Shown piece after piece: positions 586 to 19,754 of a stretch of DNA of 22,117 nucleotides (position 1 is its first letter; each line of letters begins with the position of its first letter). This DNA is from an uncultured archaeon (GTDB taxonomy: Archaea; Asgardarchaeota; Jordiarchaeia; Jordiarchaeales; Jordiarchaeaceae): NCBI GenBank assembly GCA_964510585.1, contig CAZECW010000158.1, positions 1 to 22,117 of the forward strand, read 5' to 3'. Under the pieces are notes generated by a model. That model saw only the letters and a program-made list of their open reading frames with translations. It was not told where the DNA came from and ran no database searches. The translations under genes and the position numbers were made by a program.

Positions 586-2142
586 TTGGAGAAGTATCCC
601 TGGTTTAATGAAAGGCAAAAAAGGCTTGTTGATGAGGTTAACGAATTTGTGGATGAAATAACTCCCAGAGCTTATGAGGCTGCCGTTAAACAGGAGCATC
701 CCCGGGATCTAATTAAGATGGTTGCGGAAAAGGGATGGTTTGGGGCCCTTGTACCAGAAGAGTATGGCGGTATGGGAAAGGAAGTTGGGGTAACAGGTTG
801 CCAGATTATTTGTGAGGGTTTGACTCGAGCCGGGACGATAGGCGGCATATATAGTGCGACTTCCTTCGGCGGTGTGGAGCAAATATGTATGTTTGGTACA
901 GAGGAACAGAAGCAGAGGTGGCTACCTAAAATTGCCAGAGGTGAGCTACTGGGAGCCATAACTCTCACAGAACCATTTGTGGGCACTGACGCTGCAGGTA
1001 TCAGAACCACAGCCAGACGCGATGGCGACTACTATATATTGAATGGGAAAAAAAGGTTTATTTCAAACTCGGGAGTGGCAGACATTTACATGGTGTACGC
1101 GAAAACCAGCGAAGACCCCAAAGATAGAGCATCCTACAAGCATTTATCAGCTTTCATAGTTGAGAAGGGTACTCCAGGCTTCACTGTTGAGAGAATAAAT
1201 GAATTGGCTGTGTTTAGAGGCATACGTAACGGAATTTTGGATTTCGACAACGCACGGGTCCCAGCATCCAACATGCTGCTGGGAGAAGGAAACGGCTGGG
1301 GAGTTATGACTGCGGGTTTAAACTTTGAGAGGCTAACGGTGGCAACCCAGATAATTGCGGGTATGAGGGAGGCCTTAAGATATGCGCTATACTTTGCAAC
1401 TAAGAGGGTGCAGTTCAACCAGCGCACCATAGATTTCGAATCCAACCAGTACAAACTGGCAGACATCATAATAAGGCTGAAAACCGCCAGACTCCTTACC
1501 TATTACGCCGCATGGATGATGGACCAAGGATTAAACCCGGTAGTTGAAGCCAACGCAGCCAAAATATACGCCACAGAAGCCTGCAGGGAAGCGGCTATAG
1601 ACGCACTCCAAATCATTGGAGGAGACGGCTTCACAAAGTTCTACCCAGTAGAACAGATACTGTTAGACGCCAAAATATTAGAAGTTGGTGCGGGTACCAA
1701 TGAAGTTCTCAGGAGGCTATTAACTGCCCAGGCTAGAAGAATTATGGCTGATGAGCTTAAAGCTCCCCGAAGGCGGATACACAAGGAATTGAGGATCCCG
1801 ATACCCTATTATAAGCCCTCACCAGAATTTGCTCCAAAAAAGGTTCCCAAAGATTTGCAGGGCATGGAGGAAGCTATTCTTGAGGCTCTAGCAGCAGACT
1901 ACTTTGTTAATCCCGGTCTCCACATGAAGAGGGAAGAGTTAATCGAGGACACAGGACTCGACGAAGAACAGCTTGACGAAGCCCTAGTATCGCTTGAGGA
2001 AAAGAAACTGGTTGATCTCTACAGAACAAGGCAGGGCGTAATAATACTTGCAAAAGCCACCTACGAAGGTCTCAAAAAAGCCAAACCCAAAGAGTACTAC
2101 CAGTGGTATCCACCCTGGAGCAAGGAGGACGAAAGATTCTAA
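586..2142 (+). CDS. Acyl-CoA dehydrogenase with a C-terminal winged-helix-like extension
   Basis: ACAD motifs ITLTEPFVGTDAA, YILNGKKRFISN, GLNFERL, RVQFNQ, QIIGGDGF, GAGTNEV; about 130 extra C-terminal residues; TTG start with GAGGTGG SD. Confidence 0.92.
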   Translation: MEKYPWFNERQKRLVDEVNEFVDEITPRAYEAAVKQEHPRDLIKMVAEKGWFGALVPEEYGGMGKEVGVTGCQIICEGLTRAGTIGGIYSATSFGGVEQICMFGTEEQKQRWLPKIARGELLGAITLTEPFVGTDAAGIRTTARRDGDYYILNGKKRFISNSGVADIYMVYAKTSEDPKDRASYKHLSAFIVEKGTPGFTVERINELAVFRGIRNGILDFDNARVPASNMLLGEGNGWGVMTAGLNFERLTVATQIIAGMREALRYALYFATKRVQFNQRTIDFESNQYKLADIIIRLKTARLLTYYAAWMMDQGLNPVVEANAAKIYATEACREAAIDALQIIGGDGFTKFYPVEQILLDAKILEVGAGTNEVLRRLLTAQARRIMADELKAPRRRIHKELRIPIPYYKPSPEFAPKKVPKDLQGMEEAILEALAADYFVNPGLHMKREELIEDTGLDEEQLDEALVSLEEKKLVDLYRTRQGVIILAKATYEGLKKAKPKEYYQWYPPWSKEDERF

Positions 2143-2150
2143 GACTACAC

Positions 2151-2170
2151 TTCTTATCCTTTTTATTGCC
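2151..2170 (+). terminator. Possible U-rich archaeal terminator between convergent genes
   Basis: TTCTTATCCTTTTTATTGCC directly after the ACAD stop, in a 32-nt gap between convergent ORFs. Confidence 0.3.
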
Positions 2171-2174
2171 TTTG

Positions 2175-3299
2175 TTAACCTGATTCTAGAGCGGCTTGGC
2201 AACCAGCAACCAGAGCTTTCAAAAAGTCTTCTGGACTAATTTCAGATGTTTCCCAGTTGGGTTTCTGGTAAGCTGCCTTTATCTTTTCCAGCATAGTTTT
2301 TTCATCTTTTGCTGAGACGCCCTTTAGGGATTCCTCCATCTCCCTTAGAACTGGTACGGGTTTAGCGTAAAAGTCACCACAGAAAAACATGTCCTTGATT
2401 ATTCCTTTGCTATCTAGTAGTACTCGGCTCTCTACCAGTTTGCGTGACTTGTATCTACCGATACCATATTTGTGGTCGGGTGGAATTTTTCCGAATCTTC
2501 TCTTGCTGGAAACGGCGAACATGTGTTCATCGGATTGAGCCTTTACTGCGAAGTCTTCGCACATTTCCCACTCTTCTTCAGTGTACTCACCGATTCTGAA
2601 TTTTACACCAAAAACTTTTCCAAAAGCCTTATAGGCGGCGCTTGCAAACTCATAGGGATCTGGTCTGTGTCCAGTTTCGGCCTCCACACCACCCTGATAC
2701 TCTCCAAAAGATTTTATCTTCTTATCTTTCCACTTCTCCTCTGGTATTCTAGCTATCTGTGGCAATAAATCGCTGCTAATATATCCAGGGAAGTTGGAAG
2801 AATTAATTAGATATAATCCTCCCACTTCCGTAACTCCTACGGCTCCCATTTTTCTACCTGAACGCTCAGCCCTCACATCATCCGGAGGATAATACTTGGC
2901 ATCTTTAACACCCAGAATCTTGTACATTTCTGTTAGTGCGGTTCCAGACTTGTAAAATGCTTCCTGCATACTTGAAAAAATAGTTTTATCAGCCAGTATT
3001 CCGATGCCCATGAACCCCTCTGGGTCTAAGAAAATTACTCCTCCGCCCATACCCTCAAGTCTCCTGCAGATTTCAATATTGTGCTTTTTTGCCAGTTCTA
3101 GGTCTATATCCGTGTCTATGTCTTGGAAGTAGCCTAGAGATATGCTGGGTTCCGGAAAGTACCATACTGAGATTCCATTTGGCACTTTGCCCTGCATTCT
3201 GAGGCTTATGGATGCTATACTCATACCTAAAATTCTGGTTGCGGTTCCCTTAGTGAAAAGGGTGAATTTCATTTCGTTGCTTTTCCAATCTTTAAGCAC
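2175..3299 (-). CDS. lplA: Lipoate-protein ligase A family protein (BPL/LplA catalytic domain plus C-terminal LplB-like domain), divergent
   Basis: RRLEGMGGGVIF (variant of RRxSGGGAV), GRKMG with the conserved Lys, C-terminal IIKDMFFCGDFY...LEESLKG domain; GTG start with GGAGGGAG SD. Confidence 0.8.
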   Translation of the reverse strand: MLKDWKSNEMKFTLFTKGTATRILGMSIASISLRMQGKVPNGISVWYFPEPSISLGYFQDIDTDIDLELAKKHNIEICRRLEGMGGGVIFLDPEGFMGIGILADKTIFSSMQEAFYKSGTALTEMYKILGVKDAKYYPPDDVRAERSGRKMGAVGVTEVGGLYLINSSNFPGYISSDLLPQIARIPEEKWKDKKIKSFGEYQGGVEAETGHRPDPYEFASAAYKAFGKVFGVKFRIGEYTEEEWEMCEDFAVKAQSDEHMFAVSSKRRFGKIPPDHKYGIGRYKSRKLVESRVLLDSKGIIKDMFFCGDFYAKPVPVLREMEESLKGVSAKDEKTMLEKIKAAYQKPNWETSEISPEDFLKALVAGCQAALESG

Positions 3300-3392
3300 T
3301 TTTCTCCCTCCAAATAGGAATAGATTACTTTTATTATATCGTTATAATATTAAAATTTATCTACGGAAAAAATTTTGAGATTTTGTTTCTCT

Positions 3393-4322
3393 CTAGTAGT
3401 TTATTGTAACATTAAGTCCGTAGGACTCTATTATGTTTTTTATCTCTTTGAGTTCTTCCTCACTTAATGGTTTGGTTCCAGTAAAGGGGTATTTTCTGCC
3501 TAGAAGCTTGTATTTGTGTCTTCCCCATTCGTGATAATTTAAAATTGATACTTTTTGGAATGGCCTTTTGGATAGAAATTTTGCTAGGGTCTCTATGTAT
3601 TGGCGGGAATTGTTGAAGTTGGGGATAATGGGAATTCTTGCCCAAACTGTTACTCCCTTTTTCAGAATTTTGTCTAAGTTCTTTAGAATCAGCTCATTAC
3701 CGACACCAGTGCCTTTCTGATGTATTTCTGAGTCTAGATGCTTTATGTCGAAAAGAACTAAGTCCGCATAATTGGAAACTTCATTTAACGCCTCCCACGC
3801 AGCGTGTCCGGAGGTGTCTAGGGCAGTGTGTAGTCTTCTATCCCTACACTCTCTTAGCAGGTTAAGGGTGAATTTCGCCTGGTAAAGTGGTTCGCCTCCG
3901 GATACTGTTATGCCTCCGCCAGAATTTCTGTAGAAAATTTCGTCCTCCATAACCTCTTCCACGATTTCTTCTAAGGTCATCTTTTTCCCTATTTGATTTA
4001 TTGCTCCTGTTGGGCAGGCTTCTTCACACTTCATGCATAAATTACACTTAGTCCTATCTATTTGGACACCATCTTCATTCATCTGAATGGCCTTTAGTGG
4101 ACAGGCCCCAATACACCTCTCACACTTATTGCATTTTTCCTCTCTGAAAAATATGTCGGGGAAGGGGTTTATTGATTCGGGATTGGCACACCATCCGCAT
4201 CTTAGGGGGCAACCTTTTAGAAATACTGTGGTTCTAATTCCCGGGCCGTCATGAATGCTATATTTCTGAATATTGAATACCATTCCCTCTCTGCCTGTAG
4301 GGTCATTCCTCCAATTATGCAT
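3393..4322 (-). CDS. Glycyl-radical enzyme activating enzyme (radical SAM) with a 2x[4Fe-4S] ferredoxin insert
   Basis: IQKYSIHDGPGIRTTVFLKGCPLRCGWCANPES (CxxxCxxC), two CxxCxxCxxxCP motifs, SGGGITVSGGEP, HTALDTSG; 21 nt downstream of the GRE. Confidence 0.95.
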   Translation of the reverse strand: MHNWRNDPTGREGMVFNIQKYSIHDGPGIRTTVFLKGCPLRCGWCANPESINPFPDIFFREEKCNKCERCIGACPLKAIQMNEDGVQIDRTKCNLCMKCEEACPTGAINQIGKKMTLEEIVEEVMEDEIFYRNSGGGITVSGGEPLYQAKFTLNLLRECRDRRLHTALDTSGHAAWEALNEVSNYADLVLFDIKHLDSEIHQKGTGVGNELILKNLDKILKKGVTVWARIPIIPNFNNSRQYIETLAKFLSKRPFQKVSILNYHEWGRHKYKLLGRKYPFTGTKPLSEEELKEIKNIIESYGLNVTINY

Positions 4323-4343
4323 ACCTTTTCACTGTGCTTGGTG

Positions 4344-6701
4344 TTAGAAGCAGTGGGGAGTCCGTGCAATGATTGAATCCTGTAAATCTTTGCTCAGATC
4401 CACGAAATAAGCTGAATATCCACATACTCTTACCATAAGGTTGGAGTGTTTTTCTGGGTGCCTTTGGGCCTCCTCCAAGGTTTCTCTCCCCACCACACTG
4501 AATTGGATATGATGGATTCCCAGATCTGCCCATGTTCTCAGGTACTGGGCAAAGACCTCTGCATTGTGTCCCTCCAAGTACTGGGGCATAAAGTTTTGGT
4601 TGAGTAGGTGATTCCAACTAATTAATGGATCAACTTTTGAAACTGACTTTAGAACAGCGGTCGGTCCCTTATGGTCCCTACCCCCCACCGGTGAGACACT
4701 TCCATCATGGAAAGTCTCTCCTGCTTTCCTCCCGTCTGGTGTGGCTTCGCATATTCTTCCCCAGAGCCAGAAGGCTGAAGCCACAGTCCCATCTGGAATC
4801 ACGGGCGTTCCAAGATTTGTTTTGCACTTCATGGTTTCTTGGGTCACCCTTTTCGCCACTTCTCTTGATATTGAGTCCACGTAATCGTCGTCGTTGCCAA
4901 ATTTTGGTGCCTCTAGACACATTTTTCGAATTTCCTCGTAACCTTCCCAGTTATTCTTCAGGGCTGCGATCAATTGTTTCATGGATATTTTTTTCTCTTC
5001 AAACACTAGTTTTTTGATGGCGGCTAGGGAGTCTGCTACATTGTTTAGTCCCAGTATAACTACGTCTCTGTAGTCTGGATTATAATTCCATTCTCGGATG
5101 TCCTGTGCCCTCTCTATCGAGTCGTCAAGCACTGCTGATAGAAATGGTCTGGGTACGTATTCTTTGTAGAGGCTGTCCGCAATGTTTGATAGGAAGACCA
5201 GTTTCCGAATTCTTGTTGCATATTTTTCTATGAAGGCGTCTATGAGCTCCTCGATTGAGTTAAATTCTTCTCCCCTCGATATCAATACTTCGTATAGGAG
5301 TTTGGGAAGAGGAACTGCGTTGGCCCACGCCGAGCGGTGGTTAAGGTTTTTTCCCGGGATGGTAGGAACCATACAATTATTTATGGAATAGTTCCTAGCG
5401 TCACTGAGGGGTACGCCAAGACTAACCAGTCGGGGTATGTTCACCTTGTCGTTGAAGAATGCGGGTTGAGGCATTCCTGTTGCCAATACCTCGATAGCTT
5501 TGTCTATTAGCTTCTTTGGAATTTTATCATGCCACCTTAAAGCTATTGGAGGAGTTACTGTTCTCACGCTTTTCATTGCGTCTAAAACTATGTAACTCAT
5601 CTCATTGGTGACATCATTTCCCTCAGAATCTGTTCCCCCGATGGTAATGGTTTGGAATCCTATAGCACCTCCTCCGGCGCCGGACCATACGGGTGGGTGG
5701 AGGAAACCGGTTTCTTGGGATTTCACGAATATGCATTCCACAAGTTCTTGGGCTTGTTCCCGAGTTATTCTTCCCTCTTTTAAATCCTTTTCGTAGTAGG
5801 GATTAAAGCATACATCGAATCTTATGCCGTCTCCCACCATGGGTAATTCGATGAAATTGACGATGAGGTGAATTAGCCAATAGCACTGAATAGCCTCATG
5901 TAGTGTGCGTGGAGGGTTCTCGGGCACCCACTCACAGTTTTTCGCTATGGTTTCAAGTTCCCTTCTTCTCGCCGGGTTTTCTTCACGCTCAGCCAGCTCT
6001 CTTGCCAGCTTCGCATATCTTTTAGCCCAATTTATTGCCGCCTCCAAAACAATGATTACACTATCCAAAAATCTGGTTTTCTTCACATATTCTTCACCGT
6101 TGATCTCTCCCTCTACCAACTCTTTGACAAGCCTCTCCTTTCTCTTTTGAGCTTCTTGAATGATTCCCCTTAACCCTATTTGGAATATTTTTTGATAATT
6201 TGGAGTAGCGCACTCCCAATTGAAAACATAAACTATTTCGTCGGCCACGCCTTTGGGAATCATTCTCTTAAATATGTGGTGTACCGCTAATTTGTCCCAG
6301 TACGAGTCTATTTCTTTAAGCTCCCTTCTTCCCTCATCGGTCAACATTTCACTATAAACATTTCCGGGCTCTGTTTCTCTTTCCACCCATTTCCAAGCAA
6401 ACTCCGGGTAGTGAACAACTGAATCCGGAGTGGATGCAAAGTTTCCCACCACCAACTCGTCCTGCCGAATATATATTGTCATTTTCTCCAAAATGTGTTT
6501 CAGTCCTTTAGCCCTCCTCAGAATCATGGGCTCCCCCTCGGTTTGCTTGTAAGACTCTGTTAGCAGTCTAGCCCTCTCTAAATCCAAGACCCATATCATA
6601 CCAGGTCTGCGGGCTCGAGCATCTTGGGCTATCTGAATATTAGAAACTTGGAGAGCTTTAATAGGAGTGCTCAACATTAATCTTTGGGTTCTTTCAGTCA
6701 T
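4344..6701 (-). CDS. Glycyl-radical enzyme, BssA/AssA (fumarate-adding)-like branch; substrate unknown
   Basis: Gly loop VRVCGYSAYF (Gly codon 4419-4421); Cys loop NYSINNCMVP (Cys codon 5373-5375); ATPDGRKAGE, KGPTAVLKSVSKV, LLNQ, TWADLGIHHIQF; start probably ATG 6701 (GGTGTGGAG upstream), alternative GTG 6716. Confidence 0.9.
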   Translation of the reverse strand: MTERTQRLMLSTPIKALQVSNIQIAQDARARRPGMIWVLDLERARLLTESYKQTEGEPMILRRAKGLKHILEKMTIYIRQDELVVGNFASTPDSVVHYPEFAWKWVERETEPGNVYSEMLTDEGRRELKEIDSYWDKLAVHHIFKRMIPKGVADEIVYVFNWECATPNYQKIFQIGLRGIIQEAQKRKERLVKELVEGEINGEEYVKKTRFLDSVIIVLEAAINWAKRYAKLARELAEREENPARRRELETIAKNCEWVPENPPRTLHEAIQCYWLIHLIVNFIELPMVGDGIRFDVCFNPYYEKDLKEGRITREQAQELVECIFVKSQETGFLHPPVWSGAGGGAIGFQTITIGGTDSEGNDVTNEMSYIVLDAMKSVRTVTPPIALRWHDKIPKKLIDKAIEVLATGMPQPAFFNDKVNIPRLVSLGVPLSDARNYSINNCMVPTIPGKNLNHRSAWANAVPLPKLLYEVLISRGEEFNSIEELIDAFIEKYATRIRKLVFLSNIADSLYKEYVPRPFLSAVLDDSIERAQDIREWNYNPDYRDVVILGLNNVADSLAAIKKLVFEEKKISMKQLIAALKNNWEGYEEIRKMCLEAPKFGNDDDYVDSISREVAKRVTQETMKCKTNLGTPVIPDGTVASAFWLWGRICEATPDGRKAGETFHDGSVSPVGGRDHKGPTAVLKSVSKVDPLISWNHLLNQNFMPQYLEGHNAEVFAQYLRTWADLGIHHIQFSVVGRETLEEAQRHPEKHSNLMVRVCGYSAYFVDLSKDLQDSIIARTPHCF

Positions 6702-6802
6702 AATACTTCTCCACACCTTCGTTCTATTATGTAGGAATTGGGCAATGAAAAAAATAAAAACTTATGCCCTAGAACTCTGAATTTAGAAAGCATAGCTTAT
6801 TT

Positions 6803-8653
6803 TTAGAGATACCTCTCTATTTCTCGAATTATGTAATTTGTGTACCAAAGTGCCTCTTCTAGTGTGTCTTGTACCTTGTTCTTTTCTTGGACTAGTTTTG
6901 TGGTTAGTAGCTTGTACCTTTCCGAGTCGGGACTCAAATTTGCATACTCCAGTAGTGGTAGTAGTACGGGTATGGGCTTATTTACATAGGTGGCTCCGTA
7001 GGGGTCTCTTTCGTATCTGCCGATGTAGGTGTAGTTTATGGGTATCAGTATTCTGCTGAGCTTCATAATGGTTTGGTTGATTTCTTTGAGCAGCTCTTTT
7101 CCCTCTTTTGAGGGCTGGCTTTGATACTTGTTCCAGAACTTTTGTATGGCTTCGTCCAGCTCTTTGGTTCTTTTTTCCAGTTCTTCAGCTGTTCTGATCA
7201 ATGGTTTCAAATCCATTCTTCCCCGGGCTTCCTCGTTTAATTTTATGAGCCTATTTTTAAGAACACCAGCAAGTGAGAAGAACTCGAAGGGAATTATGGG
7301 TGTATTCATGAGTCTCAAAAGAAATATGGAGTCCGCCTTCATAACCTTCTCCAACATTTTGGGATCCACTTTGTCGATGGTGTCTTCAATGCTTTGGTAC
7401 CACCATCCCAAAACCGCCATATGCTCCTTGGTAAGGGTTTCCACATCAAACATTGTTCGAGCATCAACCACAGGAACGCCAAGTCCAAAGAATGAACCAT
7501 TATCCGCCACCTTGCTTGGACGTAAACCAACATCAAAACCAATGCTCCTGGCAAACTCCCTTGTATCCATTATCTGCTTAACTTCATCCTTCCCCAAAGT
7601 GTCTTCAATTACCTTCATAAGGAATCTTTCAACTTCCTCGTGGTATAGCGGAAAGTATAGTTTGCTTCCAACCATTCCTGTAGAGTCACAGTTAAGGTAG
7701 GCTATACAGTTCTTGTTTAAGTCCGACCAGAAGTTATCTGTGTACCAGGTGGAGCCCTCCATAATGCCGGTTTCGTGGGCTGCCCAGAATCCAAATTTTA
7801 TGGAACGCTTTAGTCTGTCTCGGTATTTCTGGAAAATCCGAGCCATCTCCATCATGCAGACAATTCCTGTTCCATTATCCGTTACTCCCCCACCCCACGC
7901 ATCCATATGCCCACCCATCATAACAAACTTTTCAGGCTCCTCAGTACCCTTAATGGTTGCAATGGGCATAGGAATTTTTATCCACTCCCGTGTTGCTTCA
8001 ACCCTCAACCACACTCTCACCTTTCCTTTGCTCAAGAGTTCTTTTAGCCACTCTCCACTCTTGCGGCTGATAGCGAGGCCGGGAATGGTGGGCATCAATC
8101 CTATCGTGTCGGGTGTAGGGTTACCCCACACTGGCTTCATTGTTCCCATGGGCAGGACATCATGTTCCAGGGAGCCCCAGTTCATCTGGATTTGGGCTTT
8201 AACTCCGTGGTCTTGGGCTATCTTATACTTGTATGGTCGGGGTGGATCATAGGAGATTTCTGCTAAGGCTATTTTGCCCTCTGCGTCCACCTTTTCATAG
8301 TCTTTTTCTCCCCCAGCTCCCACATAAACCAGTTCTCCGCTTATGCCTGAGGCTGTTGTGGAGGCACTGTGTGCGTAGGCAACAGCATCTATAGATCGTG
8401 GCGGACCAGGAGATAAAACTTTTAACTCCGCATAGATGGGGAAACTTAGGAAGGCTTCAAACTCGTACATATCAACATGAACTCCGTAGCTTTCAAGGGT
8501 GCTTTTAATCCACTCCGCAGTTTTTCTATCCTCTGGACTTCCTGCTAAGCGCTGAGGCACCTCTTCCGCAAGCCACTTTAGGTTCTTCATAATTTCTTTA
8601 ACAGATATTTCATTCATTATTTCCTTCTCAAGCTTCGGGTCTAGCCCGTACAA
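6803..8653 (-). CDS. M28 peptidase-fold protein with PA domain and GCPII/TfR-like C-terminal helical domain; non-canonical active site
   Basis: RLAGSPED, ELVYVGAG (PA domain), GGHMDAW, TDNGTG, WAAHETG, YLNCD, WYQSIEDT; start reassigned to TTG 8653 behind GGAGG SD (the ORF track starts at 8734); no signal peptide evident. Confidence 0.85.
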   Translation of the reverse strand: MYGLDPKLEKEIMNEISVKEIMKNLKWLAEEVPQRLAGSPEDRKTAEWIKSTLESYGVHVDMYEFEAFLSFPIYAELKVLSPGPPRSIDAVAYAHSASTTASGISGELVYVGAGGEKDYEKVDAEGKIALAEISYDPPRPYKYKIAQDHGVKAQIQMNWGSLEHDVLPMGTMKPVWGNPTPDTIGLMPTIPGLAISRKSGEWLKELLSKGKVRVWLRVEATREWIKIPMPIATIKGTEEPEKFVMMGGHMDAWGGGVTDNGTGIVCMMEMARIFQKYRDRLKRSIKFGFWAAHETGIMEGSTWYTDNFWSDLNKNCIAYLNCDSTGMVGSKLYFPLYHEEVERFLMKVIEDTLGKDEVKQIMDTREFARSIGFDVGLRPSKVADNGSFFGLGVPVVDARTMFDVETLTKEHMAVLGWWYQSIEDTIDKVDPKMLEKVMKADSIFLLRLMNTPIIPFEFFSLAGVLKNRLIKLNEEARGRMDLKPLIRTAEELEKRTKELDEAIQKFWNKYQSQPSKEGKELLKEINQTIMKLSRILIPINYTYIGRYERDPYGATYVNKPIPVLLPLLEYANLSPDSERYKLLTTKLVQEKNKVQDTLEEALWYTNYIIREIERYL

Positions 8654-8702
8654 AAAATAACCTCCTTCCACTTTGAAATCGACATAATTGAAATTGAACC
8701 TT

Positions 8703-8720
8703 CCTAAATTTAAATTTAGG
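8703..8720. promoter_or_regulatory. Perfect 18-bp palindrome containing a TATA-like core, upstream of the M28 gene
   Basis: CCTAAATTTAAATTTAGG is its own reverse complement; it lies 50 nt upstream of the TTG start. Confidence 0.5.
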
Positions 8721-9125
8721 GGTATCCCGCTCAAAAAATTGGTGTGACAGAATCCTGTAACCCTTCAAAAATATACGATATACATTTGGGCATTCCTTTT
8801 CACTTGTCTGGTATCCATAAATAAAGTCGAAACAGCCCTTTCTTCAGTTTTTGTAGACTCCTCACCCTCTTTTTGACCAAAAATGGTTAAATGTTTAGCA
8901 AAAGTTTTTATATGACCTAAAATAACAAATGAGAGTAGCATATTATAATATTATATTGCATTTATATCAGTTATTATTTAAGAATTACTTCAATGTAATA
9001 AATGGCCAAACTGGCAACGGCTACCTGCCAAGCATCACAATAAAGTTACCACCACTAAAATACAATAAACATTGAAGCAAGTAAACACGCCAAATTCAGT
9101 AGAAACAAATAATGGAGATGCTGTG

Positions 9126-9500
9126 ATGAGAGGAGTTTTTCTAAGTAGTTTAAGGAAACTCTTGAACGACATAGAGTGTGGAGAGTTGACAGACATAAAC
9201 GAATATCTTAGTGATTGCTGGAAGGAGTTGAGTCTAAGAGAAAAAGATAGCTCCATAAGTAGGGAAATCCTATCTAAAAATAGAGAAATATTGGAAAAAT
9301 TGACTCAAACCCTCCAAGAACACAAAGAGAGACCCCTAAGTGAAGAAAAACTACACCTAGTAAAATCAATTATTTACGGAGAACCAGCAAAACTGCAATA
9401 CGCCGAAAAGCCCCCAAACCTTAGTGAAATCTCAGAATTAAAAGACTTATTAGAGGAAATAGAAAGAAAAATGAAAAAACGCGGCAAACCAAAAAGGTAG
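9126..9500 (+). CDS. Hypothetical helical protein with a basic C-terminal tail
   Basis: Only long ORF in a 0.9-kb gap; GGAGA upstream of ATG 9126 (GTG 9123 is possible); A-rich coding-like composition; no recognised domain. Confidence 0.6.
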   Translation: MRGVFLSSLRKLLNDIECGELTDINEYLSDCWKELSLREKDSSISREILSKNREILEKLTQTLQEHKERPLSEEKLHLVKSIIYGEPAKLQYAEKPPNLSEISELKDLLEEIERKMKKRGKPKR

Positions 9501-9686
9501 TAAACGCTAACCCCCTTCATTTTCTAGTGTCGGTACACTTCCTGTTATGTTTCACTCTTTTACCATACTGGAGATACTCCAAGGCGCGAAGGGTTGGGAG
9601 GTTATCCACAATGCTCTTATTTTTCAACTTGAAACGTTTCTCCTGTGAATCTCTTTGATTCTTTTCAGTGGTAGGAGATTTGGCTT

Positions 9687-11789
9687 ATGGTTGACATGTC
9701 CGCGGAGAGGCGTCCTAATAGGTTGATTTTTCAGAAAAGTCCTTATCTTTTGCAGCATGCTTATAATCCTGTGGATTGGTATCCTTGGGGTGAGGAGGCT
9801 TTTGAGAAGGCCAGGAGGGAAGATAAACCCATTTTTCTTTCCATAGGCTACTCCACTTGTCACTGGTGCCACGTAATGGAAAAGGAATCATTTGAAGACC
9901 CTGAAGTAGCTAGACTGATGAATGAAACATTTGTTTCCATTAAGGTGGATAGGGAGGAGAGACCGGACATAGACAATGTTTACATGATGGTTTGCCAAAT
10001 GATGACTGGCTCCGGCGGTTGGCCCCTAACCATAATTATGACGCCTAGTGGGAAGCCCTTCTTTGCAGGCACATACATTCCTAAGGAGAGTAGGTTTGGT
10101 TTAACTGGGATTAAGACTCTGGTACCAAGGATTAAGGAGTTTTGGGAGAAACGTAGAGAAGAGGTGGAGAGTTCGGCTGAGCAAATAATCGCGTCAATCA
10201 AGTCTGCTTCAATGGAGACTCCGGGCGAAGATTTGGGCGAAGAAATTCTCCACAGATGCTACGAAAATCTTTACGATATCTTTGATGAGCAAAACGGGGG
10301 CTTCGGGTACGGTCGCAAGTTTCCCACGCCACACCACCTCTATTTTCTGCTCCGCTACTGGAAGCGCACCGGTGACGGTTGGTCTCTAAGAATGGTGGAA
10401 AAAACTCTTCAAGCTATGCGTCTTGGCGGCATATATGACCATGTAGGTTTTGGCTTCCACCGATACTCGGTGGATAACCAGTGGCTGGTTCCACATTTTG
10501 AAAAAATGCTTTATGATCAAGCATTGCTGGTGTTGGCTTACATAGAAGCCTATCAAGCCATTGGAAAATTGGTGTACGCCCAAACGGTTCGCGAAGTGTT
10601 GATCTATGTTTTGCGAGACATGGTTTCCCCAGAAGGAGGGTTTTACTCTGCTGAGGATGCCGATAGTGAAGGTGAGGAAGGGAAGTTTTACCTTTGGAGA
10701 GAGGAGGAAATCAGACAAATACTCTCGAGGGAAGAAGCGGAAGCCGTAATTAAAATCTACAACATTAGCAAGGAGGGTAACTTTGAGGAGGAGGCATCAA
10801 GGAGGAAGTCTGGAAAAAACATATTCCACCTCAGAAAACCACTCACCGAAATAATTTTGGAACTTCGAATGCCCTTGGAAGAAACATTAAAACTCTTAGA
10901 GAATGCGAGGCAGAAACTCTTTCTAGAGAGGGAGAAAAGGGTTCACCCACACAAAGACGACAAAATTTTAACCGATTGGAACGGTTTAATGATTGCGGCA
11001 CTGGCTAGAGCAGCTCAAGTCCTTGAAAAGCCGGAATACCTGCAAGCGGCCCAGAGGGCAGCTGATTTCATACTTGGGAAAATGCGCAACACAGAGGGAC
11101 GCCTTTATCACCGTTACCGTGAAGGTGAGGCTGCTATACCTGGCTTTTTGGATGACTATGCCTTCTTCATCTATGGACTCATTGAACTTTATGAGGCAAA
11201 CTTTGAAGTAAAGTACTTGAGGGAAGCTATCACCCTAGCTGGAGAAATGATTGAACATTTCTGGGACGATGTGAATGGAGGATTCTACTTTACTGCGGAT
11301 GACGCGGAAAATGTTCTTATCCGAAAGAAAGAAATATATGATGGTGCTTACCCCTCGGGGAATTCTATAGCAATGCTGGATCTGCTTCTCCTCAGTCGCT
11401 TAGCGGCAAACCCAGAATACGAAGATAAGGCTACACAAATAATGCGTTCCTTCTCTAGAACCGTCTCCATAAACCCCATGGGGCACACACAGTTAATGGT
11501 GGGATTAGATTTTGTATTAGGGCCTTCCTATGAGGTAGTCATTGTGGGTAACACTCATACTGATGATACCAAAACTATGCTAATAGCCCTCAGGGAAAAA
11601 TTTATTCCCAACAAGGTGGTGCTCTTTGTTCCAAGCGATGTAGAATCTCCCGAAATAACGGGAATTGCAAAGTTTACTGGAAATCAGAAGGTTGTTGGGG
11701 GAAAAGCAACAGCCTACGTGTGCCAGAATTATGCCTGCAAGCTCCCAACTACAGATATTGGAGAAATGCTCGAATTCCTAAAGGCATAA
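9687..11789 (+). CDS. yyaL: YyaL/SSP411 (SPATA20-like) thioredoxin-domain plus six-hairpin glycosidase-fold protein
   Basis: [97 protein letters not shown]; start could be ATG 9696. Confidence 0.93.
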
Positions 11790-11811
11790 AGAGGAGTAAA
11801 ATGAGGTGTTC

Positions 11812-12663
11812 TCACCTCTTCCCATATTTTGGGCTTCTTTTCTCCATAAAGGCCGTTAAAGCTTCAAAAATGTCTTTGGTACTCATGCAAACTACTTGGT
11901 TCCGGTTCTCAAGATATAATGCTGCTTCAAGGCTTGGAGCATCTATATTCATGTTTATTGCTTCCTTGGTTAAGCGTAGTCCGAGGGGGGTTTTCTTGAG
12001 CATTTCTCGTGCTAGTTCTAAAGCGGCTTCCATTAACTTGTCGTCTGGAACTACTCTGGAGACGAACCCTATTCTTTCAGCTTCCTGTGCATCTACGAAT
12101 CTTCCAGTGTATAGTATTTCTGCAGCTCGTGACAATCCGATTAGTCTTGGTAGAAAGTAGCTACTGCCCACATCGGTTCCCGACATGCCAATGTTGATGA
12201 ATGCGTTGTTAAATCTTGCACTTTCACCCGCTATCCTAATATCTGCAGCCATGGCTAGGGCGAAGCCTCCACCAGTTGCGGGGCCCTTCACAGCGGCGAT
12301 CACTGGCTGATTGATTTTCCTCAGCTGAAGTATGACATCAGCGATTCTTCTTTGTCCATACATTTTTCTCTTCGCTTCGTCTTCCACATTCAAATATTTC
12401 AACTTCGAATATTTATCTGGAAGATTGTCTAGGGACGCAAATAGAGAAGCTTCCTTGAGATCCGTTCCGGAACAAAACGCTCGGCCTTCCCCAGTAATTA
12501 TTAGCACTCGACAATCTACGTTCCACTCTAACTCGCCTAATAAGTCGTGAAGTTCCTCAATCATCTCAAAATTAAGTGCATTAAGTCTCTCCGGCCTATT
12601 AAGAGTTAATATACCTATACCTTCCTCTAATTCCTGATACCTAATAGTATTGTAATCCTTCAT
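11812..12663 (-). CDS. Enoyl-CoA hydratase/isomerase (crotonase) family protein, paralog 1
   Basis: LTLNRPERLNAL, GEGRAFCSGTDL, PVIAAVKGPATGGG, DAQEAERIG; SD GGAGG. Confidence 0.92.
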   Translation of the reverse strand: MKDYNTIRYQELEEGIGILTLNRPERLNALNFEMIEELHDLLGELEWNVDCRVLIITGEGRAFCSGTDLKEASLFASLDNLPDKYSKLKYLNVEDEAKRKMYGQRRIADVILQLRKINQPVIAAVKGPATGGGFALAMAADIRIAGESARFNNAFINIGMSGTDVGSSYFLPRLIGLSRAAEILYTGRFVDAQEAERIGFVSRVVPDDKLMEAALELAREMLKKTPLGLRLTKEAINMNIDAPSLEAALYLENRNQVVCMSTKDIFEALTAFMEKRSPKYGKR

Positions 12664-12712
12664 TTAGAAACCTCCACTAAGACAAGTTTGCTTAATTCAA
12701 CGTGATTAGAAA

Positions 12713-12720
12713 TTTATAAA
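12713..12720 (-). promoter_or_regulatory. Putative TATA box of crotonase paralog 1
   Basis: TTTATAAA 50 nt upstream of the ATG. Confidence 0.45.
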
Positions 12721-12841
12721 ATTGTAGGCAAGTCCCAGAAAAAATGGGTTAAAAAGTTGTAAATTGGTAAACGTTTTGGAAAAAATACTAAAAACTCTCA
12801 AAATTTGCCATCAGAGAAAAAGGTGGAGAGGGAATTATCTT

Positions 12842-14026
12842 TTAGGCCTTAAATTTTTCCCTCATGATTTTTTCTAACTCTTGTACTTGCACTTGTTGTC
12901 TCTTTTTAATTGCTTGTTTTACTTTTTGGATTGCCATTTCTTTTGCCACTTCGGTGGGAACTCTTTTCTCTTTGAGAGCCTTGGACAATACTTTTTTCAC
13001 TGAATCCGTTATTTTTTCCTCTACCAATTTGAAAGCCTGATCCTCGGTAGCACTCATGCGGTCTAAAGTGGCTGCAATGACGCCTCCAGAGTTTGAGATG
13101 AAGTCTGGAATAACAACTACTCCCTTCTCCAAAAGGATTTTTTCAGCCTCATCTGTGACTGGAATGTTGGCTCCAGAACTAATTAGTTTAGCCTTAATTT
13201 TACCTGCATTTTTCTTGTTTATCACGTATGGTCTGGCGCCAGGAACAAGTATATCTACAGGCAGAGTAAACAGCTCCTCTTTTTTGATTGGTTTGGCGTC
13301 CTTATACTCAAGAACCACTTTATCTCCATACTTCTTCCTCATGGTTAACATTTTTTCTACATCTATACCATTTGGATTATATATTGCGCCCTCAATTGTA
13401 GATAATGCCACAACTTTGGCTCCCGAACGAGCCATATATCTCGCTACTCCCCCGCCGACTTTTCCGAAGCCCTCTATAGCCACGGTTGCATCCTTTATGG
13501 GAAGCTTTATTTGTTGGCAGGCAACTTTGGCAGCTACAACTACCCCGTATCCTGTCAGGTGATCTTCTAGAGGCATACCTTCCTTTTCTTTGAGAGTTAA
13601 CCCACTGGGAGCTATTTCACTCATACCTGCATACTTGTATATTTTGCCCACATCCTCATCCGAAGTGCCCATATCCGCACCAGGAATATACATGAGTTGC
13701 TTCAAAAAGGGGGCGATTTGCCTACCATAAGCGGCGAGTATTTTTTCCCTGTTGGGAGCAGCAGGATCAGCGAATATTCCGGATTTAGCACCGCCCACAG
13801 GCATGTCCAATGCTGCAAACTTATAGGTCATAGCCCTAGCAAGGTGGAAGATTTCCTCGGTGGTTATATCGGGAAGCATTCTGATACCACCTGCAGCGAC
13901 CCCAAAGGCGGCGGTATCAATTACTATTACGCCTCTCATACCAGACCCGGGATCATACATTTGAAGTATGTACTCTGGACCCATATCATCCTTCAATCTA
14001 TCGATAATGTCAACTGACAACTTCAC
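12842..14026 (-). CDS. Glu/Leu/Phe/Val dehydrogenase family; probably not glutamate-specific
   Basis: AAGGIRM, MTYK, GGAKSGI (catalytic Lys), GADMGT, TGYGV, AIEGFGKVG (Rossmann), GANIP, PDFISNSGGV; GTG start after GGAGGT. Confidence 0.9.
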   Translation of the reverse strand: MKLSVDIIDRLKDDMGPEYILQMYDPGSGMRGVIVIDTAAFGVAAGGIRMLPDITTEEIFHLARAMTYKFAALDMPVGGAKSGIFADPAAPNREKILAAYGRQIAPFLKQLMYIPGADMGTSDEDVGKIYKYAGMSEIAPSGLTLKEKEGMPLEDHLTGYGVVVAAKVACQQIKLPIKDATVAIEGFGKVGGGVARYMARSGAKVVALSTIEGAIYNPNGIDVEKMLTMRKKYGDKVVLEYKDAKPIKKEELFTLPVDILVPGARPYVINKKNAGKIKAKLISSGANIPVTDEAEKILLEKGVVVIPDFISNSGGVIAATLDRMSATEDQAFKLVEEKITDSVKKVLSKALKEKRVPTEVAKEMAIQKVKQAIKKRQQVQVQELEKIMREKFKA

Positions 14027-14585
14027 ACCTCCAAAGGAAGCGAATAAATTCAGATTCTTTTTCCGTCATTCAAAGATAAAATATTTTCGATAAACTTCCA
14101 AATTTAAGAACCAATCACAGAACTAATTAGAAAAATCACATAAGAATAAGTGTGAAACCACTCTTGGAAAGCATTTAATATGAGTTACTCAATAGAAGTG
14201 TTGCTGTAAAGCCTTAAGGGTCAACTATATGCAAGATAGCGGGTATCTCTGGATAGGTGGATCTGTATTTTGAGTTTTCTGGTTTCTTGCAAGGGAGAAG
14301 GAGGACTGGGTTTAATGAGCTGCTTGTTTTACCAACCGGGTGATGTATATTCGCACGATTCCACCCCCCTATTTTGAGGCTCTAAATTTGAAAAGAAGCT
14401 GTATAAACGCTCTTTTTTAAGCAGAACTCTTCCAGATCACTCTGCCAACTATTCCTCTGGTGTGTAAGACTTTTTGGCATTTTAAGCATTGAAAATTGAA
14501 CATCATAAAGGGGTTAAAAAAAGATGTTTTTCTTTGGAGACCCATAAGTATGTGTGGATTATAAAAAAATGTCGAGGTTTTAGGG

Positions 14586-15434
14586 TTACCTTCTGGGATA
14601 TCTGGGTTCTCTTTTCTCAAAAAATGCTGCGATACCCTCTTTGGGATCAGTGGTGCCCATGCATATCACTTGAGCCCTGTTTTCCATGGCAAGAGCGGTT
14701 TCTAGGTTGGGGGCGTTAAAGTTTATATTTATGGAGGATTTAGTTAGCCTTAGACCTAGAGGACTTTTTGCCACAAGAATTTTTGCCATTGCTATCGCTT
14801 CATCCATAAGTTTGTCATCTGGAACCACGCGGGAAACAAGGCCGATTCTCTCTGCCTCCTGGGCATCTACAAACCTCGCAGTATAAATAATCTCCGCTGC
14901 TCTAGACCAGCCCACCAATCGGGGTAAAAAGTAGCTATTGCCTATATCCACTCCTGATAGTCCAAGCAGAAACACTGAGTTTCTAAACCTTGCGCTCTCC
15001 CCTGCGATGCGTATATCTGCAGCTAGAGAAAGAGCGAAGGCCATGCCCACCGCGGGACCCTTTATAGCGGCAATAATGGGCTGGGGTATCTGGCGCATTT
15101 TTAAAGCAAGCTGGGAGGTGCGCACCTGGGCATAGTATTGCCTTTTGGCCACTTCTGGAATATCCATGTACTTAATATGTTTGTAGTTCTCAATTATTTC
15201 TGGGGCATAGATTCTTGCACACTCGTTGAGATCCGTTCCAGCGCTAAATGCTCGTCCCTCACCGGTTAGGATCAGCACCCGCACATCCAAGTCCCACTCC
15301 AACTTGTTGAAAAGGTCGTGGAGCTCCTCAATCATCTGAATAGTGAAGGCATTCAGCTTATCTGGACGATTTAAGCTCACAACGGAGATTCCATCCTCTA
15401 ACTCCTTATACTTTATTGCTTCATAACTCTCCAC
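14586..15434 (-). CDS. Enoyl-CoA hydratase/isomerase (crotonase) family protein, paralog 2
   Basis: SLNRPDKLNAF, GEGRAFSAGTDL, PIIAAIKGPAVG, SYFLPRLVG, DAQEAERIG; GTG start with GGAGGT SD; collinear with paralog 1. Confidence 0.92.
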   Translation of the reverse strand: MESYEAIKYKELEDGISVVSLNRPDKLNAFTIQMIEELHDLFNKLEWDLDVRVLILTGEGRAFSAGTDLNECARIYAPEIIENYKHIKYMDIPEVAKRQYYAQVRTSQLALKMRQIPQPIIAAIKGPAVGMAFALSLAADIRIAGESARFRNSVFLLGLSGVDIGNSYFLPRLVGWSRAAEIIYTARFVDAQEAERIGLVSRVVPDDKLMDEAIAMAKILVAKSPLGLRLTKSSININFNAPNLETALAMENRAQVICMGTTDPKEGIAAFFEKREPRYPRR

Positions 15435-15493
15435 AAATATTACCTCCTTTTTAGAAAATATGTGTTAAACTAATTATTTTCACTACTCCTCCG

Positions 15494-15500
15494 TTATAAA
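15494..15500 (-). promoter_or_regulatory. Putative TATA box of crotonase paralog 2
   Basis: TTTATAA on the minus strand about 60 nt upstream of the GTG start. Confidence 0.4.
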
Positions 15501-15711
15501 TTTAGAGCTAGAAATTAAGCATCTAAAAGCTGAAATCTAAAAGTTTTCAGAGCAAATTGTTTGGGGAGGAAGTTTTTAAGAGGGAGATCTTTTATCATGT
15601 TCTTAGAAAAACAATTATTCCTTCCCTCTAATACCACAAAGCATTTCTTTAGCTTCTTTTGGGCGATAACCAAAATTCTCCAAAACTGTACACTAAGCGA
15701 AAGCATATTAT

Positions 15712-15844
15712 CTTGACAATGTTAAATTAGGTTGGTTTCCTTCCCAAAATTACCAAAAACAGGAGAAAAGTCACTTTCCCTCAAGATGAAAAGGGGAAGA
15801 AACTAGGGGAAAATTGCTAAGAAAACAAATTTAACATTGTCAAG
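15712..15844. mobile_element. MITE-like non-autonomous element, 133 bp, with 17-bp perfect terminal inverted repeats and 4-bp TTAT target-site duplication
   Basis: CTTGACAATGTTAAATT (15712-15728) and AATTTAACATTGTCAAG (15828-15844) are exact reverse complements; TTAT flanks both ends (15708-15711, 15845-15848); no coding capacity. Confidence 0.75.
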
Positions 15845-15907
15845 TTATCCAAAACTCCTAAACAAAAAATTGGAGGGGAAAAATGGATTTTATTGTGTTC
15901 TCTTATT

Positions 15908-17401: not shown

Positions 17402-17415
17402 ATCACCTTCCTCCT

Positions 17416-18069
17416 TTATGTTACTCCTAGAAGTTCTTTGGCTAGTTTTACCGCCTCCACGGCGTCGGTGGCGAATCCATCGGCTCCAATCTCTTCAGCC
17501 CACTTCTCGGTGACTATGGCTCCGCCAATAATGTATTTGACCTTGTCGCGGATTCCATATTGTTCAAGGGCTTTTGCCACGTTGAGCTGTTCTTGCATGG
17601 TCATGGTGAGCATGGCGGAGGCTCCAACTATGTCTGCGTTTAGCTCCTTGGCTTTTTTGGCGAATTCTTCCGGCTGGACATCTTTGCCCAAGTCGTAAAC
17701 CTCAAATCCATTTGCGAAGAGCATGGAGGCCACAATATTTTTCCCTATGTCGTGGATGTCGCCAAAAACTGTGCCAATAACCACCCTCCCTACGGGTTCC
17801 CGTGATTCTCCGCTTTTCTTGAGAGCAGGTTCCAAGACCTCTTTTATTGCGCCCTGAGCAGCATCCCCAGCAGCTATTAGCTGAGGCAGGAAGAACTCCC
17901 CACTCTCAAATTTGTCTCCGAAATCTCTCAAAACATCGGTTAGCACATCTATGAGTTTCAGGGGACTCACACCCTTATCTAGGGAGTCTTTGAGGATTTT
18001 GGCCAGCTTTTCCTCTTCAAATTCCAGCAATGCTTCCTCAATATCCTTTCGGATTTTCTCCTCGGACAA
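17416..18069 (-). CDS. Methyltransferase cognate corrinoid protein (MttC/MtbC-like)
   Basis: N-terminal cap (GDKFESGEFFLPQLI) plus B12-binding GTVFGDIHDIGKNIV (DxHxxG), DLGKDV, IVGASAML, IIGGA; TTG start with GAGGTGA SD; 14 nt upstream of mttB. Confidence 0.93.
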   Translation of the reverse strand: MSEEKIRKDIEEALLEFEEEKLAKILKDSLDKGVSPLKLIDVLTDVLRDFGDKFESGEFFLPQLIAAGDAAQGAIKEVLEPALKKSGESREPVGRVVIGTVFGDIHDIGKNIVASMLFANGFEVYDLGKDVQPEEFAKKAKELNADIVGASAMLTMTMQEQLNVAKALEQYGIRDKVKYIIGGAIVTEKWAEEIGADGFATDAVEAVKLAKELLGVT

Positions 18070-18168: not shown

Positions 18169-18421
18169 TTATTCTCTTCCTAAAAAAGCGGAGCGGAATA
18201 ATTGTTCGGGTTCCTGTTTCCTCCTTTAGGAGGCGCTTTTGCAAACTCGCCTTTAAAATCTCCTTGAGAGCGTTTCCATTTTAGAGTAAATATTAGGAAA
18301 AATGAACGAAAGCAATGCAAAAGGAATAAAAATAGGATTGAGAATTTCTCTATCGGTTTTCCTTGCTTACTCATCGGCGACGATGGCTTATGGCTGAGTG
18401 GCTTGTGTGAGGTGGTTTCGA

Positions 18422-19735: not shown

Positions 19736-19754
19736 AATATGGAGGAATGAGCTG

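Follow-up and report, generated by a model that had tools for sequence, protein, structure and literature searches.

An Asgard archaeal glycyl radical enzyme of an orphan family that phylogeny places beside the X-succinate synthases

Results and Discussion

Glycyl radical enzymes (GREs) perform the hardest anaerobic reactions, including the activation of hydrocarbon C-H bonds. A gene for such an enzyme lies at positions 4344-6701 (minus strand) of contig CAZECW010000158.1, a 22,117-nucleotide stretch of DNA from an uncultured Asgard archaeon (Jordiarchaeia) that is here termed the window. Sequence comparison assigns its product to an orphan family, named NNCMVP after its active-site loop, which belongs to a larger clade, termed clade X; the clade containing the X-succinate synthases (XSS), the fumarate-adding alkyl- and benzylsuccinate synthases, is its only characterised neighbouring branch. 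On balance, the enzyme probably carries out a radical reaction that needs no acid/base catalyst and in which the substrate or a co-substrate bears a carboxylate, and not the canonical XSS reaction. An initial annotation, made from the DNA letters alone, had described the gene as an archaeal GRE with signatures of the fumarate-adding enzymes.

The gene, its activase and the predicted fold

The genes and codons central to the analysis are:

4344-6701, minus strand: GRE gene, an open frame of 785 amino acids, stop-free from 6701 to 4347, with its stop codon at 4344-4346
5373-5375, minus strand: codon of Cys443, the predicted thiyl-radical Cys in the loop YSINNCMVPTIPGKN, from alignment with glycerol dehydratase (GDH) Cys433 and benzylsuccinate synthase (BSS) Cys493
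5334-5336, minus strand: codon of Arg456, 13 residues past Cys443, the putative positional homologue of BSS Arg508 (hhalign profiles)
4419-4421, minus strand: codon of Gly761, the predicted glycyl radical site in RVCGYSAYF, invariant in alignments
3393-4322, minus strand: GRE-activating radical SAM enzyme of 309 amino acids, 21 bases downstream of the GRE gene

On translation of 4344-6701 on the minus strand, the motifs quoted in the initial annotation and its coordinates for the Cys and Arg codons were all correct, the peptides DARNYSINNCMVPTIPGKNLNHRS, RVCGYSAYF, KGPTAVLKSVSKV, LLNQ, YLRTWADLGIHHIQF, PEKH, WSGAGGGAIGFQ and GTVASAFWLW being present in the product. Translation probably starts at the ATG at 6701, since homologues open with MSxRTQxLM. 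The enzyme displays the features of a PFL2-type GRE, namely the barrel and a Gly_radical domain with RVxG, the catalytic Cys on the loop that follows barrel strand 5 and an adjoining activase; Pfam detects the PFL-like domain (PF02901, E = 5.5e-166) and Gly_radical (PF01228, E = 4.1e-27, spanning residues 668-767). The activase, of BssD/PflC type, reaches 374 bits with TIGR02494, the model for GRE activases (cut-off 174), and 272 bits with the BssD model, and comprises a Radical_SAM domain and two ferredoxin-type cluster motifs. The GRE and activase genes form an intact pair, and the GRE gene is real and complete. A scan of the window for sigma-70 promoters and terminators is uninformative for an archaeon.

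An AlphaFold2 model of the GRE, built from a 54-sequence alignment (predicted local distance difference test, pLDDT, 91.5; predicted template modelling score, pTM, 0.93), superposes on all solved PFL2-type GREs with template modelling (TM) scores of 0.87-0.92, reaching 0.92 for BSS and (1-methylalkyl)succinate synthase (MASS) and 0.91 for GDH. As every PFL2-type GRE superposes within this range, fold comparison was rejected as a discriminator between candidate functions.

No NCBIfam equivalog was reached by the GRE, for which the top model is the PFL2-3 subfamily (567 bits, cut-off 678). Identity with pyruvate formate-lyase (PFL) is excluded by a score of 107 bits on the PFL model (cut-off 994) and by the presence of a single Cys and no adjacent Cys-Cys pair. 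Scores on the eliminase models were below cut-off (HpsG, 514 against 1000; HypD, 471 against 1100; CutC, 431 against 1050; PflD, 463 against 1109), as were those on the models of indoleacetate decarboxylase (IAD, 390 against 1100) and 4-hydroxyphenylacetate decarboxylase (HPAD, 305 against 1150). The top match in the Protein Data Bank (PDB) is GDH (471 bits), with propanediol dehydratase at 451 bits, both at 34-36% identity; BSS and MASS show about 30% identity and 355-362 bits, and members of clade X score 640-867 bits. Because the trees described below consistently join clade X to the XSS, the higher pairwise and hidden Markov model (HMM) scores of the eliminases are read as the result of faster XSS evolution. 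In a comparison with PDB and NCBIfam, no member of clade X had a solved structure or an equivalog model, and a search of the ESM Atlas with the GRE returned generic GRE clusters only.

Phylogenetic position of the NNCMVP family

As NCBIfam holds no model of the XSS alpha subunit, XSS references were located with the BssD model (TIGR04003), which gave one near-cut-off match in 401 Desulfobacterota genomes. This match led to a bssDCAB locus (L095) with the order bssD-bssC-bssA-bssB, whose alpha subunit scores 1571 bits to TutD (PDB 4PKC) and whose small open reading frames (ORFs) match PF08201 (BssC) and PF18512 (BssB). With the BssA of this locus as query, one Bss-like protein of 50% identity was retrieved, along with about 15 others that are AssA/MasD-like. 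Annotated plasmid records, a collection in which no XSS was found, supplied the references for GDH, HypD, PflD, YbiW, PflB and CutC; those for HPAD and IAD were taken from Bacillota genomes and confirmed against NCBIfam cut-offs. The distance of IslA, HpsG, PhdB, HplG and Archaeoglobus PflD, which, like PD, the trees do not include, was judged only by PDB scores (313-421 bits, against 640-867 bits within clade X).

In a 47-row IQ-TREE analysis under LG+C20+F+G4, with support given as ultrafast bootstrap (UFBoot) and Shimodaira-Hasegawa-like approximate likelihood ratio test (SH-aLRT), the NNCMVP family is monophyletic (100/100) and has as its nearest relatives a "CMWP" group (L119, P0122) and P0135 (100/97). 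Clade X (100/100), with at least about 20 half-identity clusters, unites these lineages with a "GCVY(I/L)E" group, a "CMRW" group and several further ones. Canonical Bss and Ass sequences group together (100/98) and, with basal unassigned members, form the XSS-containing clade (99/99). Clade X and the XSS-containing clade join in a superclade (100/99) that leaves HPAD, IAD, GDH, PflD, YbiW, CutC and HypD outside. Two quick IQ-TREE runs reproduced this topology, as did a FastTree of 179 rows, for which the 150 nearest cluster representatives were taken from a set of 1.84 billion proteins. An exclusive clade of the family with canonical Bss, Ass and P0151, a grouping defined only once the tree was known, was rejected by the approximately unbiased (AU) test (p-AU 0.0005, at a cost of 256 log-likelihood units).

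These trees support the family as a member of a sister clade next to the XSS-containing clade and not as a member of the XSS themselves. Of the two placements offered by the initial annotation, that the enzyme belongs to the fumarate-adding clade or is sister to it, the second therefore agrees with the superclade, while the first finds no support, in view of the AU test and of the position of the family in clade X. A position among PflD or the eliminases, the outcome that the initial annotation had regarded as fatal to its proposal, was not observed. The basal members of the XSS-containing clade (L111 from G072:C5, P0141, P0143, P0149, P0195 and P0221) retain three XSS traits, namely the Arg, the P-W-x-N strand and also the Q strand, and have a short loop of eliminase length that reads G-C-(I/V/M)-S-P; judged by these features, they may be transitional forms that link clade X with canonical fumarate-adding enzymes.

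The Cys loop and Arg456

The loop Y-S-I-N-N-C-M-V-P-T-I-P-G-K-N is invariant or nearly so in the family, and Cys443 is invariant across its 117 members. The residue at Cys+2 is Val or Ile in 117/117 members (Val445 in the query), with no Glu. Since Val and not Glu occupies this position, the canonical base-assisted 1,2-elimination of GDH, CutC, HypD and IslA is impossible from there. Compared with the XSS loop, (L/A)-C-M-S-P, the N-C-M-V-P of the query has Met and Pro in common, with Ser replaced by Val and Asn preceding the Cys. The CMSP form of the XSS loop, which the initial annotation had given, recurs in the BssA of L095 (LCMSPG...KTRSEGGG) and in the AssA-like proteins (ACMSPCP...R). In length and in its PxxPGK motif the query loop is of the eliminase (GDH) type and not of the XSS type; the B12-independent GDH and 1,2-propanediol dehydratase (PDB 1R8W, 5I2A, 9RCO) equal the query in protein length and in the length of the loop following the Cys.

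In BSS (Cys493/Arg508) and MASS (Cys477/Arg492) the fumarate-binding Arg lies 15 residues past the Cys (PMC12358834). An Arg after the Cys, which the initial annotation had likened to this residue, is present in the query, but at a spacing of 13 and not 15, a difference explained by the greater length (2-3 residues) of the XSS loop. When the 117-member family profile was aligned with 15 sequences of the XSS clade in hhalign, a single 2-residue gap was opened and Arg456-Ser457 fell opposite Arg508-Ser509; in addition, the H-R-S-A-W of the query matches K-R-N-A-W, R-R-D-A-W and K-R-H-A-W in basal members of the XSS-containing clade. As the profile pairing and the R-x-A-W motif agree, Arg456 is taken, on the strength of these alignments, to be the probable homologue of BSS Arg508, which would make this Arg ancestral in the superclade. 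A MAFFT pairing of His455 with BSS Arg508 was rejected in view of the single 2-residue gap in hhalign, the alignment of R-S on R-S and the R-x-A-W motif. Arg is found at position 456 in 38/117 family members, comprising the Asgard sequences and a small number of further ones, among them P0089, an early-branching bacterial member. The residue at this position changes in step with residue 291 (Asp291, or Ser in the Ile type), with positions 640 and 644, and with the Gly loop, which reads either CGYS or AGFA.

The remainder of the pocket

The further fumarate contacts described for the XSS (PMC4848970, PMC12358834), among them Trp613, Asn615 (or Thr) and Gln707 (or Glu690), are not conserved in the family. 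By hhalign mapping, those of BSS are predicted to correspond to the following positions:

BSS Trp613: Asp/Glu546, invariant
BSS Asn615: Val/Thr548
BSS Gln707: Thr639, invariant
BSS Tyr197: Trp162
BSS Ser199: Cys/Ser/Ala164

Additional replacements from BSS to the query are Ser495 by Val and Leu492 by Asn. The XSS-containing clade conserves the strands P-W-x-N and P/G-Q/E-S/N-V throughout. Clade X lacks them in its entirety and shares D-G-S/T instead; at these hallmark strands the query reads YRDVV and DGT. Relative to GDH, the query replaces His164 by Cys, His281 by Met, Ser282 by Val, Tyr339 by Phe, Tyr640 by Thr and Glu435 by Val. Apart from Arg456 and the invariant Asp/Glu546 and Thr639, the pocket is aromatic and hydrophobic (Trp162, Trp339, Phe349, Trp645). 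In detail the predicted pocket is neither XSS-like nor eliminase-like, and presents one Arg (in the archaea), one invariant acid and one Thr.

Subunits and gene neighbourhoods

By phylogeny, the closest characterised relatives of the family are the XSS (BSS alpha subunit TutD/BssA, PDB 4PKF and 5BWE; MasD, PDB 9O8U). The query resembles them in its Cys-Met-x-Pro loop without a catalytic Glu, in the position of Arg456, in its GRE fold (TM 0.92) and in a dedicated activase of BssD/PflC type, and differs in being about 75 residues shorter and in lacking the beta, gamma and delta Fe-S subunits. No match to BssC (PF08201) or BssB (PF18512) was obtained at E<=1 in the 96%-complete host genome, while both were detected in the control locus L095, and no small Cys-rich ORFs occur among the GRE, the activase and the flanking genes, which leave no room for them. 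Across 57 family loci only the pair of GRE and activase is general, the activase following the GRE in 48; this two-gene layout is also that of the GRE 1,2-eliminases (CutC, HypD, IslA/IseG, HpsG, PflD/YbiW).

Other genes of the window are:

6803-8734, minus strand: M28 peptidase (Pfam Peptidase_M28), upstream of the GRE gene
9687-11789, plus strand: DUF255/thioredoxin-domain protein (Pfam Thioredox_DsbH, E = 2.2e-79)
12842-14026: Glu/Leu/Phe/Val dehydrogenase
15908-18069, minus strand: MttB-superfamily methyltransferase (497 amino acids, uninterrupted) and an adjoining corrinoid-binding protein with B12-binding domains
18398-20174, plus strand: PaaK-type aryl-acid CoA ligase (AMP-binding and AMP-binding_C_2 domains), followed by an ACT-pair protein

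The DUF255/thioredoxin-domain protein, found near the GRE in 13 Asgard loci, is the most conserved neighbour in this group; the M28 peptidase (in Jord- and Lokiarchaeia), a nitroreductase and a peroxiredoxin (AhpC) are also conserved. The peptidase gene likewise precedes the GRE gene in a Lokiarchaeia locus (L006), which represents lineage synteny and need not reflect a functional link. In both the window (2175-3299, minus strand) and L006 (12299-13423), the GRE-activase pair is followed by genes for a lipoate-protein-ligase-like protein, with an LplA-B catalytic domain, and for an acyl-CoA dehydrogenase. The methyltransferase of the window has no in-frame TAG and is thus of the non-pyrrolysine type; L006 has instead a B12-binding protein and a URO-D-type methyltransferase directly after the activase. 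The PaaK-type ligase, the ACT protein, the Glu/Leu/Phe/Val dehydrogenase and two enoyl-CoA hydratases look like genes of amino-acid and aryl-acid fermentation. Succinyl-CoA-type CoA-transferase or mutase genes are absent from the window, and nothing in the archaeal gene neighbourhood indicates a hydrocarbon, one of the substrates that the initial annotation had suggested.

In Dehalococcoidia (L029, L051, L058 and others; about 1500-18000) the GRE lies in a same-strand cluster that opens with an AMP-forming ligase, an NMO-type FMN enzyme and an enoyl-CoA hydratase, and continues with an 881-residue fusion protein (CrtI/amine-oxidase-like flavoprotein, FNR-like module, 2Fe-2S domain). The GRE and its activase come next, then an RlmN-like radical SAM gene and, last, as many as three further AMP ligases. 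We take the fusion protein to be reminiscent of limonene dehydrogenase CtmAB together with its ferredoxin and reductase. Other bacterial loci add an enoate/dienoyl reductase of old yellow enzyme (OYE) type, an acyl-CoA dehydrogenase and a thiolase with a DUF35-like partner, as well as Liv-type binding proteins, an ABC transporter and MarR or TetR regulators. As CoA-thioester enzymes recur beside the GRE over several phyla, the context suggests that a carboxylic acid of some kind serves as substrate or is formed as product. In some Chloroflexota, tandem GREs precede one activase (L017, 5503-10397; L007, 6109-12397); both copies belong to the NNCMVP family in L017, and the first copy is of another type in L007 and L019.

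Distribution and host genome

The closest database proteins, at 96-97% identity, are from metagenome-assembled genomes (MAGs) of Jordarchaeia and Freyarchaeia, in agreement with the archaeal origin given in the initial annotation. Other Asgard copies, from Lokiarchaeia and from Hermod-, Hod- and Thorarchaeota, show 75-89% identity, with the orthologues of Hermodarchaeota MAGs at 75%. Bacterial copies, at 60-68%, derive from Chloroflexota (mainly Dehalococcoidia), Desulfobacterota (Smithellaceae, Syntrophia, Syntrophobacteria), SAR324, Spirochaetota and others, and all carriers of the family among the database matches are uncultured. Conservation is thus strong, with identities of 60-96% spanning Asgard archaea and several bacterial phyla, and clustering of 1.84 billion proteins at 50% yields one representative for the whole family. 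The family is present in at least 8 of 301 sampled Asgard genomes, two of them from the genus of the window itself, a lower bound in that the survey scored the three best candidates per genome. The GRE gene is accessory, with a patchy distribution.

The host genome (3.78 Mb, 96% complete) encodes five GREs, none of which matches a characterised type. The four others, on contigs C117, C172, C125 and C62 (loci L001-L004, respectively), likewise stay below the NCBIfam equivalog cut-offs. Their loops read GCVEP in L001, GCVYIE in L002, GCVEP in L003 and GCLEN in L004; the L002 protein belongs to clade X, within its "GCVY(I/L)E" group, and scores 731 bits to the GRE of the window, and that of L003, in a 1001-residue open frame, carries about 200 extra N-terminal residues. 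Bacterial genomes with the family are unusually rich in GREs, with 9, 7 and 8 PFL-like matches in G002, G003 and G004, respectively. The last of these is a Dehalococcoidales MAG of only 2 Mb, and the first two additionally encode canonical AssA-like proteins.

Candidate reactions

In the reading that we favour, and in keeping with general GRE biochemistry, the radical SAM activase would generate a radical on Gly761, the radical would move to Cys443, and the Cys443 thiyl radical would take a hydrogen atom from the substrate. In the step that follows, a C-C bond would most likely be formed or broken, in a reaction akin to fumarate addition yet different from it. The bacterial operons suggest that the acid, as product or substrate, would be processed in the form of its CoA thioester, and the enzyme would work without the small Fe-S subunits of the XSS. 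Searches of the literature on glycyl radical enzymes in Dehalococcoidia and on alkylsuccinate synthase in Lokiarchaeota/Dehalococcoidia found no characterisation of the family.

Several observations weigh against this reading. Position 456 is Ile, Met or Val in 79/117 family members, the derived bacterial majority, with Ile in about two thirds of the bacterial members; as these bacteria have lost Arg456 and retain a near-identical active site, the residue may be dispensable for the shared chemistry. In the archaeal subfamily, Asp291, which covaries with Arg456, could tie it up in a salt bridge, and MAFFT and hhalign differ by one residue on the partner of BSS Arg508. Several acids in the pocket are invariant, namely Glu163, Asp543, Asp546 and Asp637, and each is possibly a relocated base. 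The Asgard neighbours point to no pathway and may serve to protect an oxygen-sensitive enzyme from oxidants, and the CoA-enzyme context is bacterial and comes in part from closely related Dehalococcoidia, that is, from non-independent loci.

It is unlikely, though less so than the other alternatives, that the enzyme is a genuine fumarate-adding hydroalkylase, working in an archaeon without accessory subunits and adding the radical of a hydrocarbon or alkyl-aromatic compound to fumarate. The sister position of clade X, the Cys-Met-x-Pro loop without Glu, the location of Arg456 opposite BSS Arg508 and MASS Arg492, and the largely aromatic and hydrophobic pocket would all suit such an enzyme. So would the top TM-scores by query length, to BSS and MASS (0.92), although by a small margin, and the CoA ligase, hydratase, dehydrogenase and thiolase neighbours in bacteria, as in alkyl-/benzylsuccinate pathways. 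Against these stand the rejection of an exclusive clade with canonical XSS (AU p 0.0005), the replacement of the P-W-x-N and P/G-Q/E hallmarks of the XSS-containing clade by YRDVV and DGT, a Cys-to-Arg loop shorter by 2-3 residues, and the failure to find BssC and BssB in the 96%-complete genome or small Cys-rich ORFs in the flanks. The Ile that replaces the Arg in two thirds of the family, the lack of succinyl-CoA-type CoA-transferase or mutase genes in the window, and a family found in only 8/301 sampled Asgard genomes argue in the same direction. The fumarate-binding Arg of the initial annotation stands as a position, opposite BSS Arg508 by profile-profile alignment, and is called into question as a function by its replacement with Ile, Met or Val in 79/117 members, by its covariation with Asp291 and other residues, by the substitution of the other XSS contacts and by the lack of small subunits.

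A wider form of the same proposal, a single-subunit hydroalkylase that adds the radical of an unactivated C-H substrate (hydrocarbon, isoprenoid or alkyl-aromatic) to fumarate or another enoate, appears similarly doubtful. The enoate would be held between the amides of the Cys loop and Arg456. If true, this would be the first archaeal and the first accessory-subunit-free enzyme of the fumarate-addition type, and clade X would be a hidden set of anaerobic C-C bond-forming enzymes.

There is little likelihood that the enzyme is a decarboxylase of an arylacetate or another carboxylic acid, acting by a Kolbe-type radical mechanism and with an origin independent of HPAD, IAD and PhdB. HPAD (PDB 2Y8N) and IAD (PDB 7E7L) are, like the query, non-eliminase GREs, and IAD, whose loop reads GGCVLHQVPGK, also lacks Glu at Cys+2; Arg456 could hold a carboxylate, and the pocket has aromatic residues. 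At a distance of 8-13 kb, the window also encodes a PaaK-type aryl-acid CoA ligase, an accompanying ACT protein and an amino-acid dehydrogenase, and the MarR regulators, Liv-type binding proteins and CoA ligases beside the bacterial members are typical of aromatic-acid catabolism. However, HPAD and IAD form a separate clade and are larger (870-900 amino acids), HPAD needs a small Fe-S subunit, and the NCBIfam scores are far under the cut-offs (390 against 1100; 305 against 1150). The product, moreover, would be a volatile hydrocarbon and not an acid, a poor fit to the CoA-ligase/hydratase context, and the Arg is not kept across the family.

Most improbable is a 1,2-eliminase (dehydratase or lyase) with its general base relocated to, for example, Asp546, Glu163 or Asp637, which would accommodate the best pairwise and HMM scores (GDH 471, propanediol dehydratase 451, HpsG model 514 bits), the loop length and PxxPGK shared with GDH and not with the XSS, the several invariant acids lining the predicted pocket and the "GCVY(I/L)E" subclade of clade X with Glu at Cys+4, but is opposed by the position of all tested eliminases outside the superclade, by the Glu at Cys+2 in all characterised eliminases where the family has an invariant Val or Ile, and by the replacement, mostly with hydrophobic residues, of the polar substrate-binding residues of GDH.

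Implications for the annotation of archaeal glycyl radical enzymes

Metagenomic studies often label GREs of Asgard archaea and Chloroflexota as alkyl-/benzylsuccinate synthases. GREs of Hermodarchaeota have been proposed to perform Ass/Bss fumarate addition on the basis of 29-33% identity to AssA/BssA and a single Cys (PMC8163825). The archaeal homologues of that study are described with Gly before the Cys (GC-type loops) and come without XSS-specific residues, subunits or biochemistry; in the NNCMVP family, Asn precedes the Cys. That similar genes are predicted in Asgard genomes and that none is known to have been biochemically characterised, as the initial annotation had stated, agrees with that study. 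The features that justify the XSS label, namely P-W-x-N, Q/E707 and the small subunits, are all missing from the NNCMVP family. Claims of archaeal hydrocarbon degradation built on such genes need biochemical support, and caution in annotation is called for. Clade X, with an invariant active site of its own and common to Asgard archaea, Dehalococcoidia and Desulfobacterota of anoxic sediments, is a target for new anaerobic carbon chemistry, and the enzyme described here, an archaeal member of an orphan GRE family, is a target for enzymology.

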